NCBI GenBank assembly: GCA_022510925.1 | Contig: JAFLSO010000003.1 | Coordinates: 28,159 to 92,158 of the forward strand | Length of the DNA: 64,000 nucleotides | Direction: 5' to 3' | Source: Treponema sp. | GTDB lineage: Bacteria; Spirochaetota; Spirochaetia; Treponematales; Treponemataceae | Part shown: in pieces, positions 54,467 to 56,879 of the stretch | Layout: each line of letters opens with the position of its first letter | Position numbering within the stretch: position 1 is the stretch's first letter | Notes under the pieces: model-generated | What the model was told of the DNA's origin: nothing | Databases searched by the model: none | Seen by the model: the letters and a program-made list of their open reading frames with translations, nothing else | Made by a program: the position numbers and the translations under genes

Positions 54467-54532
54467 CGTGCACGCTTTATCGCGGAGAATTTCTTGCAGG
54501 ATGCCGTATGCTACAACCAGGTGCGCGGTATA
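54467..54532 (+). pseudogene. Orphan internal fragment of deoD (about codons 24-45), a diverged copy of 56247-56312
   Basis: It reads [21 protein letters not shown]. Identity to the intact gene is 57/62 nt over 54470-54531 vs 56250-56311. It has no start codon or promoter. Confidence 0.92.
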
Positions 54533-54558
54533 GACAGACTTGATATAATCTTAAAAAA

Positions 54559-54590
54559 TTGACAAGAAGAATTTAAAGATATATTATAAT
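54559..54590 (+). promoter_or_regulatory. Islet sigma70 promoter
   Basis: TTGACA (54559-64)-N17-TATTAT (54582-87), with an overlapping TATAAT (54585-90). AAGGA SD before ATG 54620. Confidence 0.7.
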
Positions 54591-54619
54591 TTACTAACAA
54601 ATCATATAAGGATGTCTAA

Positions 54620-55186
54620 ATGTTTATGAGAAAAAGTGGCTTTGTATTTATATTATGCATTCTGTTTGTTTGGGCAGTGTCCTGCGTGGGTGAAAAATAT
54701 TTAAGACCGTATACTCCTGGTGTTTATTGTGACGAAGAAGCATTCAATGATCACAAGAATTTGTGGGATGGAAGCAGCGTAAAAAATTATACTTATACGC
54801 TCTGTTATGACAGTTTCCCACCGCAAAACTATACTGTTGCTGTAACCGTAAGCGATGGGAGTGTTTCTGAATGGGTTTTAAAAAAGTATTCTGGGAAAGA
54901 GGAGATAACAGAGGAAGAGAAAAAGGAATTTGAGTCTTTCTTGGAGGATAATAAAGATTTTCTGCTGATAGAAAGTGTATATGAGTTATTTTCTGCTTGT
55001 ATTTCGGAGGCATATAACAAATATACGGAATATTCGGATTGTTATTATTCAAGTTTTGATTTTTCCTTTAGTGAAGAAGTACCTTTTATTTCTTACTGCA
55101 AGAATACTTCTTTGTTGATGAAAGAAGATGTGGATGGTAACGGTGGATATGTTGAGATACAAATTAAGGATTTTAAACCGCAATAA
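54620..55186 (+). CDS. Islet lipoprotein (DUF6174-like, tentative)
   Basis: Lipobox WAVSC. The segment WDGSSVKNYTYTL...VTVSDGSV resembles DUF6174 lipoproteins (from recall). AT-rich codon usage. Confidence 0.7.
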   Translation: MFMRKSGFVFILCILFVWAVSCVGEKYLRPYTPGVYCDEEAFNDHKNLWDGSSVKNYTYTLCYDSFPPQNYTVAVTVSDGSVSEWVLKKYSGKEEITEEEKKEFESFLEDNKDFLLIESVYELFSACISEAYNKYTEYSDCYYSSFDFSFSEEVPFISYCKNTSLLMKEDVDGNGGYVEIQIKDFKPQ

Positions 55187-56059
55187 GTTTATAATAGCCG
55201 TGTTATTAAGTATATGTGTTGCGTCAAGAATATATGCCGTGGCGTTTACTTCTGTTGGTAGTATAGGAATCCAGAATGCTACTGTATGTGAAGAACTTAA
55301 CAGTAAGTATTCATCTTTAAGCAGACTTAATTGGTGTATACCGCTAAGTATAAGTTTGGGGTTAAATGAGGAACTGCTAATCTCAGGTTTTGTTTCTTGT
55401 GTAAGTATAAACACATCACTTCCTGGTAAACTGGGAACAATGATAGATTGTGATTATTATTTGTCAGGTGTTGTATCTCAGTATTCTAGCCATTCAGCTC
55501 ATATTGATACTGATTGTAGTTTTTGTATAGATTTAGTTTTAATGATATTTCTATTATTCCTTTTATTTCTGGGAAATATCAGCGCAGAAAATATTCCGCA
55601 TGGGGAGGGTATGTGCAAATTCCTTCTGGGGGACAAAATAAGACAGAAAACGATGAGACACAGAATATAGTCGGTAATGTAATAAGTTACGAGCAACAGG
55701 TTATGTTTCTGGCTTTGAAATTGAATGTTGAATATAATATTAGCAGAACCATGTCGGTTTTAGGAATTTTAAAATATAGCCCATATATTTATGCAAATTG
55801 TATAGATACGCATCATGTCAGAAATAAACAATTTATTGATAAAATGAATGGTGGTTTTTGTGTTGGAACTGAATTGGAATTTCGATATAAGGCAATAGGT
55901 ATAATCATATCATATGAATATCTTAAGAGTTCATCAAATGCAAAGACTCATATAGGTGATGTAGGTATAACAGAATCTTCAAATGCATTAGTTTCTGGAT
56001 ATGTTCCTGGAATTAAATCTAGTATATGGTTTGTGGGCTGCATGTATAAATTTAATTAG
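55149..56059 (+). pseudogene. Omptin-family (OmpT/Pla-like) outer-membrane protease, split by a frameshift near 55520-55536
   Basis: Track ORFs 55128..55670 and 55523..56059 are two halves of one barrel. Signal peptide, SRLNW, MIDCDY (D-x-D), SSH, ISYEQ, KYSPY..CIDTH (D-x-H) and a terminal MYKF all parallel OmpT. Confidence 0.72.
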
Positions 56060-56093
56060 AACAAAATAGTTTTATACATAGACAGGCGGTTGT

Positions 56094-56113
56094 GCGAATG
56101 AAAATTCGCTATT
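56094..56113 (+). terminator. Possible terminator of the islet operon
   Basis: GCGAAT-gaaa-ATTCGC hairpin followed by a weak TATTT tract. Confidence 0.35.
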
Positions 56114-56177
56114 TCATCTTGGTGTGATTAAAGACTTAGGGTGGAAAATTCGCGCGGACTGTGCTACAATATGCTCT

Positions 56178-56879
56178 ATGAGCACACATATAAACGCGCA
56201 GGACGGCGCTGTTGCGGATTCTGTCCTGCTTCCGGGCGACCCGCTCAGGGCGCGCTTTATCGCGGAGAATTTCTTGCAGGACGCGGTCTGCTACAACCAG
56301 GTGCGCGGCATGTACGGCTACACCGGCACTTACAAAGGAAAGAGGGTGAGCGTGCAGGGTACGGGGATGGGCCAGCCCTCACTCTCCATCTATGTGAACG
56401 AGCTGTTCAGGTTCTACGGCGTGCAGAAAGCGGTGCGCGTGGGGACGTGCGGGGCAGTGCAGAAAGACACCTCCCTGCGCGACGTGATTCTGGCTCAGGC
56501 CGCCTGCTCCGACAGCGCGCTTAACACCGCGCGCTTCAACGGAATGCATTTCGCTCCCATAGCGGATTTCGGTCTTCTCAAGGAGGCGCATGCTCAGGCC
56601 GAGAGAATGGGGCTTAGCGCAAGGGTGGGGCTCTGCGTGTCAAGCGATAATTTCTATGACGACAAGGAGAGCTGGAGGCTGTGGGCGGAGTACGGCGTTC
56701 TGGGAATAGAGATGGAGGCCGCGGAGCTTTACACTCTGGCCGCCAAATTCAAAAGAAAGGCGCTGGCCATACTTACGGTGAGCGATCACATTCTTCTGGG
56801 CGGGGAGACCACCGCGGAGGAGAGGCAGTCCAGCTTCACTAAGATGATAGAGCTTGCCCTGGAGACGGTGACGGCATAA
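56178..56879 (+). CDS. deoD: Purine nucleoside phosphorylase DeoD-type
   Basis: [46 protein letters not shown] and TVSDH. ATG 56178 lies 7 nt after TG-c-TACAAT. Confidence 0.97.

Follow-up and report, generated by a model that had tools for sequence, protein, structure and literature searches.

Introduction

Where genomic islands and prophages integrate at the end of a gene or a tRNA, they bring a replacement for that end, which leads to attL/attR duplications, and the chromosomal integrons of Treponema carry gene cassettes. In natural transformation, homology-facilitated illegitimate recombination (HFIR) has been described (de Vries & Wackernagel 2002; Prudhomme et al. 2002; Meier & Wackernagel 2003), and according to the summary in PMC6382021 its joints lie at 3-10-bp microhomologies beside a homologous anchor. 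Double illegitimate recombination, including its short-patch form (SPDIR), goes back to Harms et al. 2016, here in the account given by 10.1101/2023.11.22.568220. We analysed a locus that invites comparison with all of these: a 1,665-bp insert of low GC content that lies between chrA2, a chromate-transporter gene, and deoD, the gene for purine nucleoside phosphorylase, in an uncultured ruminant-gut Treponema species. It is carried on a stretch of 64,000 nucleotides, hereafter the window (assembly GCA_022510925.1, contig JAFLSO010000003.1, positions 28,159 to 92,158), which belongs to a metagenome-assembled genome (MAG) of 2.08 Mb in 82 contigs. The insert opens with a short non-coding piece of deoD, the scrap, and an earlier note made from the sequence of the window had proposed that deoD serves as a homology anchor or attachment site for such cargo. 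We find instead that the scrap is probably an unremarkable, if clean, product of illegitimate recombination and not an attachment site.

Results

The insert lies in the spacer between chrA2 and deoD

Same-species contigs from other samples were retrieved by exact-protein look-ups of chrA2, of ORF1 (the first gene of the insert) and of DeoD variants, and the strain comparisons draw on public assemblies throughout. The comparison of the chrA-deoD interval across strains, proposed in the earlier note, revealed empty sites in nine assemblies (L040, L043, L044, L064, L065, L066, L088, L089 and L090) and filled sites with identical junctions in six samples (the window/L041, L042, L085, L086+L047, L049+L046 and L087). 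The features that define the locus, in window coordinates, are as follows.

53876-54454, + strand: chrA2, second half-size chromate-transporter gene, native left flank (Pfam PF02417, E 2e-40)
54455-54475, + strand: native spacer kept left of the insert, identical stretch in 9/9 empty alleles
54476-56140, no strand assigned: whole insert, 1,665 bp, 33% GC, replacing the 17-18 bp spacer GGAGCACATAAACTCTT(G)
54476-54531, + strand: orphan deoD scrap, 56 nt, deoD codons 27-44 plus 2 nt, non-coding; 52/56 to 56256-56311 in the window strain
56141-56177, + strand: native spacer right of the insert, with the predicted deoD promoter TGGAAA-17-TACAAT plus TG at 56142-56170 (promoter scan and empty-allele match)
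56178-56879, + strand: intact deoD, purine nucleoside phosphorylase, 233 aa (Pfam PF01048, E 5e-38)
56256-56311, + strand: deoD segment copied by the scrap (codons 27-44), preceded by GGGCGCGC, the microhomology partner

The empty allele reads chrA2-TGA-CGTTTTTGCCAGCGTGCGCGC, then GGAGCACATAAACTCTTG, then TGGAAAATTCGCGCGGACTGTGCTACAATATGCTCT-ATG(deoD), its right part beginning TGGAAAATTCGC. In filled alleles the middle 17-18 nt of this spacer are swapped for window positions 54476-56140, so that the recipient lost 17-18 bp and gained 1,665 bp of non-homologous DNA; BLAST matches of the empty alleles to the window accordingly end at 54475 and pick up again at 56141. The native spacer at 56141-56177 is 100% identical to that of L044, and other alleles show a single segregating single-nucleotide polymorphism (SNP), at 56150. 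The insertion therefore lies in the chrA-deoD spacer; both allele types share the DNA of deoD, of its 5' end and of its promoter, and neither deoD nor its promoter was ever interrupted. Two ideas of the earlier note, deoD as an attachment site and an element that inserts into the 5' part of deoD and regenerates the gene, thus find no support. The right junction of the insert directly adjoins the -35 hexamer of the predicted deoD promoter, so that deoD probably remains expressed in the filled strains.

The filled junctions were recovered by two assembly types, MEGAHIT contigs and Logan unitigs, and they carry strain-specific SNPs. Because the same junctions recur across six samples, the arrangement is not an assembly artefact, and the mis-assembly or strain chimera that the earlier note had named as a possible refutation is excluded. 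Three Logan unitigs (L045, L046 and L085) end exactly at the joint between spacer and scrap or at a 30-nt stretch common to deoD, which would fit a branching of the assembly graph at the repeat, or empty and filled alleles present together in one sample.

The scrap is a 56-nt piece of a variant deoD allele

The earlier note had started from a match between 54470-54531 and 56250-56311, and recomputation reproduced it: the two 62-mers align ungapped at 57/62, and the mismatches, at repeat positions 3, 33, 36, 39 and 60, all fall on third codon positions in the deoD frame and are all synonymous. The strain comparison shortens the copy, however. Whereas 54476-54531 (56 nt) is indeed deoD DNA, the first 6 nt of the 62-mer (GCRCGC) and the preceding CGT, which the note had taken for an Arg codon of the fragment, are native spacer, found in every empty allele. 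Mismatch 1 (54472 A/G) is a segregating spacer SNP, the A being present also in the empty allele L089, and mismatch 5 (54529 T) is private to the window strain, with C in the 4 other filled alleles that cover the site. In those alleles the scrap matches deoD at 53/56.

What is left are the differences at 54502, 54505 and 54508, where the scrap has GAT GCC GTA and the gene GAC GCG GTC; they are common to all filled alleles and occupy three consecutive codons. The argument from five third-position changes out of five therefore weakens, from 0.004 to (1/3)^3 = 0.037, as two of the five are strain-level SNPs. What survives of it is the adjacency: 16 such triplets of neighbouring third positions exist among 27,720 placements of three differences in 56 sites, a pattern still very unlikely to arise by random decay.

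The left joint lies exactly where the spacer (GCGTGCGCGC) and deoD (AGGGCGCGC) have GCGCGC in common. This microhomology spans 6 nt, or 7/8 with the flanking base, and deoD carries GGGCGCGC at codons 24-26; the spacer partner at 54470-54475, which corresponds to deoD codons 25-26, is GCACGC in the window and GCGCGC in most alleles. The scrap also happens to be in frame with chrA2 just past its TGA stop (54452-54454), and read-through across window positions 54452-54556 would add 33 residues before the next TGA. We dismissed a meaning in this frame as a one-in-three coincidence.

Outside the three-codon patch, the scrap is identical to the deoD of its own species, including a species-typical CAG (Gln) codon. 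Its best match among 36 distinct congeneric deoD sequences is 49/56, compared with 53/56 to its own species, and in none of the 338 genomes of the genus is the 5' region of deoD more than 80% identical to that of the window. The source is therefore deoD of the same species-level lineage and not the low-GC donor of the cargo, contrary to the earlier suggestion that the scrap entered from a lower-GC lineage. More precisely, these comparisons point to a variant deoD from within that lineage, set apart from every resident allele sampled by a single synonymous patch of three codons. Of the 11 sampled intact genes covering the patch codons, all read GAC GCG GTC except that of L089, a 97%-identical strain, which has GAT GCG GTC. 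Given this intermediate state, variation at the patch codons segregates in functional genes. Moreover, GAT GCC GTA occurs in the intact deoD of three congeners (L011, L012 and L056) and GAC GCG GTC in a fourth (L058), so that the patch may have arisen in either direction. With an adjacent synonymous patch, an intermediate in L089 and the full patch in 0/11 intact genes, the earlier reading of the scrap as a different, once-functional deoD allele and not a decayed local copy seems reasonable.

The filled allele moved between strain backgrounds

The window and L042, both filled, differ at 10 SNPs (0.5%) over the tract 54345-56299, against 2.4-3.1% in the flanks, and L087 gives the same picture of a low-divergence tract between more divergent flanks. 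Filled strains do not group by flank distance, and the final 300 nt of chrA2 in filled alleles have the haplotype of the empty allele L040. As all junctions are identical, the insert arose once. It is younger than the divergence of the strains, and ordinary homologous recombination has since moved it from one strain background to another.

The spacer SNPs 54467 and 54472 are common to filled and empty alleles. A stretch of 72 nt at the scrap, 54467-54538, holds 4/10 of the SNPs that separate the window from L042 in this 1.95-kb tract, all of them transitions at G:C pairs; that two of the four are spacer polymorphisms common to empty alleles shows that recombination reached as far as the junction.

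The insert carries a lipoprotein-like gene and a broken omptin gene

GC content between the repeat copies is 29-39%, against 55-62% in either flank. The insert is unique within the 2.08-Mb MAG and was not found by DNA search in 24 genomes of the same genus. Its own features are these.

54559-54587, + strand: strong predicted sigma-70-like promoter TTGACA-17-TATTAT, 11/12 matches (promoter scan)
54620-55186, + strand: ORF1, 188-aa lipoprotein-like protein with a weak DUF6174 match (Pfam PF19671, E 4e-06)
55149-56059, + strand: omptin-family outer-membrane protease gene, frameshifted in the window strain (Pfam PF01278, E 6.5e-12)
56094-56109, + strand: terminator-like hairpin GCGAAT-GAAA-ATTCGC with a T-rich tail, within the final 53 nt of the insert (sequence scan)

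ORF1 is intact in every filled allele, and a lipobox is present both in ORF1 and in its homologues. The omptin gene of the window strain is broken by a 13-nt deletion at 55530, between ATTTAG repeats, and these 13 nt are kept in L042, L085, L086 and L087. The lesions vary by strain: L042, L085 and L087 have an extra G at 55625, L042 and L085 in addition TCA>TAA at 55384, and L086 has CAG>TAG at 55272. It looks as if the omptin protease was lost repeatedly after acquisition while the lipoprotein gene stayed intact.

Among 5.8 billion proteins ORF1 has no close relative, and the best relatives of the cassette are 32-49% identical. The lipoprotein-omptin gene pair also occurs, at 32-49% amino acid identity, in low-GC Treponema and Spirochaetaceae MAGs from ruminant guts, and the cargo therefore came from a low-GC relative. 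In one low-GC Treponema-like contig (L051, positions 4000-9000) the pair lies in an island of 26-32% GC against 40-47% around it, directly following a Peptidase_C10 (streptopain-like) gene. The pair may belong to a bigger surface-protease module that travels from genome to genome.

No recombinase, integrase, transposase or phage-like protein was found in the insert, whose genes are the DUF6174-like and the omptin gene only, or among the neighbouring genes. The insert has no inverted ends, the best terminal inverted match being 5 nt; there is no tRNA and no Rfam family in or near it, and a pattern search for GTTRRRY / RYYYAAC core sites in 54440-54620 and 55990-56180 found none. A DDE transposon or insertion sequence was rejected as a candidate, given no transposase domain, a terminal inverted match of at most 5 nt and an 11-bp repeat that is missing from the empty spacer.

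This repeat brackets the AT-rich core of the insert.

54529-54539, no strand assigned: left copy of the 11-bp direct repeat, TATAGACAGAC in the window and CATAGACAGGC in the 4 other filled alleles that cover the site
56077-56087, no strand assigned: right copy of the 11-bp direct repeat, CATAGACAGGC (sequence comparison)

The left copy carries two changes private to the window strain, 54529 T and 54538 A, where L042, L085, L086 and L087 have C and G. The empty-site spacer lacks the 11-mer CATAGACAGGC, and the repeat is therefore not a target duplication of the event that filled the site. In the 2.08-Mb genome the 11-mer occurs 7 times, compared with 2 for the reversed control. A further small repeat, the 10-mer GAAAATTCGC, is found at 56100-56109, in the 3' arm of the hairpin, and again at 56144-56153, 44 nt downstream in the native deoD promoter region, and the tail of the insert loosely resembles the native spacer (TTGTG...GAAAATTCGC). 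A 27-mer of this right segment had no match in metagenome contigs.

Beyond the insert, the neighbouring genes on contigs of 118-123 kb are housekeeping genes, chrA1-chrA2-deoD synteny is retained in several congeners, and deoD is present in 119/121 searched genomes of the genus.

Discussion

A probable capture at a microhomology

We consider it probable that the scrap is the junction remnant of a microhomology-mediated (HFIR-type) illegitimate capture of foreign DNA, which then spread by homologous recombination. Illegitimate integration fits the locus because a GC-rich microhomology lies at one joint, few base pairs were lost, the insert has neither a mobility gene nor inverted ends, and deoD homology sits beside it. 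Of the mechanisms that the earlier note had listed, illegitimate recombination is thus the one that stands, as a microhomology-type join fits the left junction.

With the scrap sequence present a second time beyond the insert, the model requires a further step, for which we see two candidates. First, the islet would initially have adjoined deoD codon 44 in another strain; an HFIR-type transfer guided by homology in the deoD region would then have carried it into a new strain; and a deletion from GCGCGC to GCGCGC would finally have trimmed the left copy by ~132 bp, namely codons 1-26 and what remained of the spacer. We favour this route, though tentatively, since it needs no further assumption to account for the allele difference and since an unstable repeat of ~190 bp would have been shortened in the process. 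Second, a template switch in the course of repair may have copied the 56 nt from nearby, the strain concerned having the variant allele, a route that we regard as possible but rather unlikely.

Several observations weigh against a microhomology-mediated capture. The full GAT GCC GTA donor allele was seen in 0/11 sampled intact genes of the species, and a 25-mer with this patch had no match in GTDB species genomes or JGI metagenome contigs. No intermediate allele, with codons 1-44 followed by the islet, was found among the sampled alleles. The right junction shares 1 nt only, and a homologous crossover is not detectable there; right of the insert, the native DNA hardly varies from allele to allele and gives no mark by which to place a crossover, and the scrap is a duplicate and not a merged anchor. 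ComEC and DprA are present, DprA having been cited by the earlier note in favour of DNA uptake, but each is near-universal, occurring in at least 10/14 control genomes, and they are uninformative on competence. Finally, the perfect 11-bp repeat CATAGACAGGC around the AT-rich core is left unexplained by the model; it may date back to a previous host or result from another template switch.

Other explanations

The rival explanations, together with scenarios outside this report, are collectively unlikely. The one that fares best takes its start from the 11-bp repeat and separates the scrap from the arrival of the islet: the scrap and the 53-nt right segment would have come first, as an SPDIR-like templated microindel, and the AT-rich core (54540-56076) later, in a transposition-like event that made the repeat. 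The repeat does bracket the core perfectly in the 4 other filled alleles that cover it, the 53-nt right segment does resemble native spacer (the 10-mer at 56100 and 56144), and SPDIR is reported to yield patches of 3 to ~100 bp from intragenomic DNA at microhomologies (10.1101/2023.11.22.568220). Yet the scrap occurs without the core in 0/15 sampled alleles, the core has no transposase or inverted ends, two rare events would be needed at one spot, and the repeat, missing from the empty site, is not a target duplication of the filling event. We therefore think this order of events decidedly improbable.

Still less credible is that the resident deoD segment was simply duplicated on the spot and then decayed neutrally, with the third-position pattern a product of chance aided by GC-to-AT bias. 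Third positions do make up 18/37 of the G/C sites of the 62-mer, a model that allows GC-to-AT changes only gives 0.027 for 5/5, and 2/5 of the mismatches are strain-level SNPs unrelated to the source allele. But the three ancestral differences lie in consecutive codons and include one C/G and one C/A transversion; they are fixed in all filled alleles, while the other 53 nt are undecayed in 4/5 of the strains that cover the right end of the scrap, and the same states are found in the intact deoD of three congeners and, in part, in L089.

We give little more than passing weight to the islet as a decayed site-specific integrative element that used the 5' part of deoD as attachment site and brought in a replacement 5' end, the orphan being attL. 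In its favour, deoD sequence is directly repeated to the left and right of foreign DNA, and the copies differ synonymously. Such an element is contradicted by the empty site, which places the insertion in the spacer and not in deoD, and by a deoD 5' end and promoter that are the same DNA in empty and filled alleles; in addition, the right repeat copy lies 115 bp past the end of the insert, no recombinase gene was found in the insert or among the neighbouring genes, and neither the congeneric deoD loci nor the cassette relatives that we checked showed a recurrence.

That assembly merged two organisms into a chimera at the shared 62-mer is barely conceivable, for although the genome is an 82-contig MAG and the Logan unitigs L045, L046 and L085 break at the repeat, the same junctions come from six samples and two assemblers with strain-level SNPs and differing omptin lesions, both flanks are syntenic native DNA, and the longest exact run common to both copies is 29 nt, far below k = 141.

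A speculative travelling handle, and what the locus shows

One could extend the capture model further and picture the scrap as a travelling homology handle: cargo devoid of mobility genes would keep a piece of its last host's deoD, which would guide HFIR re-integration beside deoD in the next strain or species, and in gut Treponema surface-protein modules would enter time and again at the chrA-deoD interval. This is speculative and we doubt it strongly. The earlier note had likewise raised deoD as a cargo-insertion hotspot, and this was not supported: no second deoD fragment was found in 40 congeneric deoD loci, and in the checked cassette relatives neither deoD nor chrA adjoins the pair within the available flank of 1.5-8 kb.

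Acquisitions that involve no mobility gene and that can be read base by base, with the empty site, the filled site and both junctions at hand, are uncommon, especially in uncultured gut spirochaetes. Under the capture model, the locus follows a foreign surface module, a lipoprotein with an omptin protease, from its probable entry by microhomology joining, through passage by homologous recombination, to repeated loss of the protease. It also holds a caution for readings based on sequence alone, as 2/5 of the synonymous differences behind the original argument turned out to be strain-level SNPs, one of them outside the gene copy.

Comparison with described systems

As in genomic islands that form att sites, the foreign DNA of this locus ends, on its far side, in a fragment of the adjacent gene, and the two copies differ at synonymous sites. 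Unlike them, the insert has no integrase and lies outside the gene, whose end was left in place; nor do the repeats enclose the insert, and no recurrence was found. Like an integron cassette, it is a small promoter-proximal module without a mobility gene of its own in a Treponema chromosome, but it has no GTTRRRY/RYYYAAC at either end, it consists of two genes with their own promoter, and it does not sit in an array.

SPDIR, as far as the account in 10.1101/2023.11.22.568220 describes it, is a second analogue; the resemblance lies at the left end, where nearby ectopic DNA (the 56 nt of deoD) is pasted at a microhomology and few bases are replaced, SPDIR being described there as giving clustered polymorphisms. 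The patches it is said to produce measure 3 to ~100 bp, whereas the insert is 1,665 bp long and its right joint is almost without microhomology. In common with HFIR, which of the described processes comes closest, the locus has foreign DNA without a mobility gene, one joint at a GC-rich GCGCGC, few recipient bases lost and deoD homology beside the heterologous segment. It departs from HFIR in that the homologous piece is duplicated across the insert and not merged with the recipient copy, which a microhomology deletion or a template switch, at the least, would have to account for, and transformation in the Treponema host is putative. Thus, rather than marking a site at which elements integrate, the piece of deoD at the edge of the insert is probably what an HFIR-type capture left behind.

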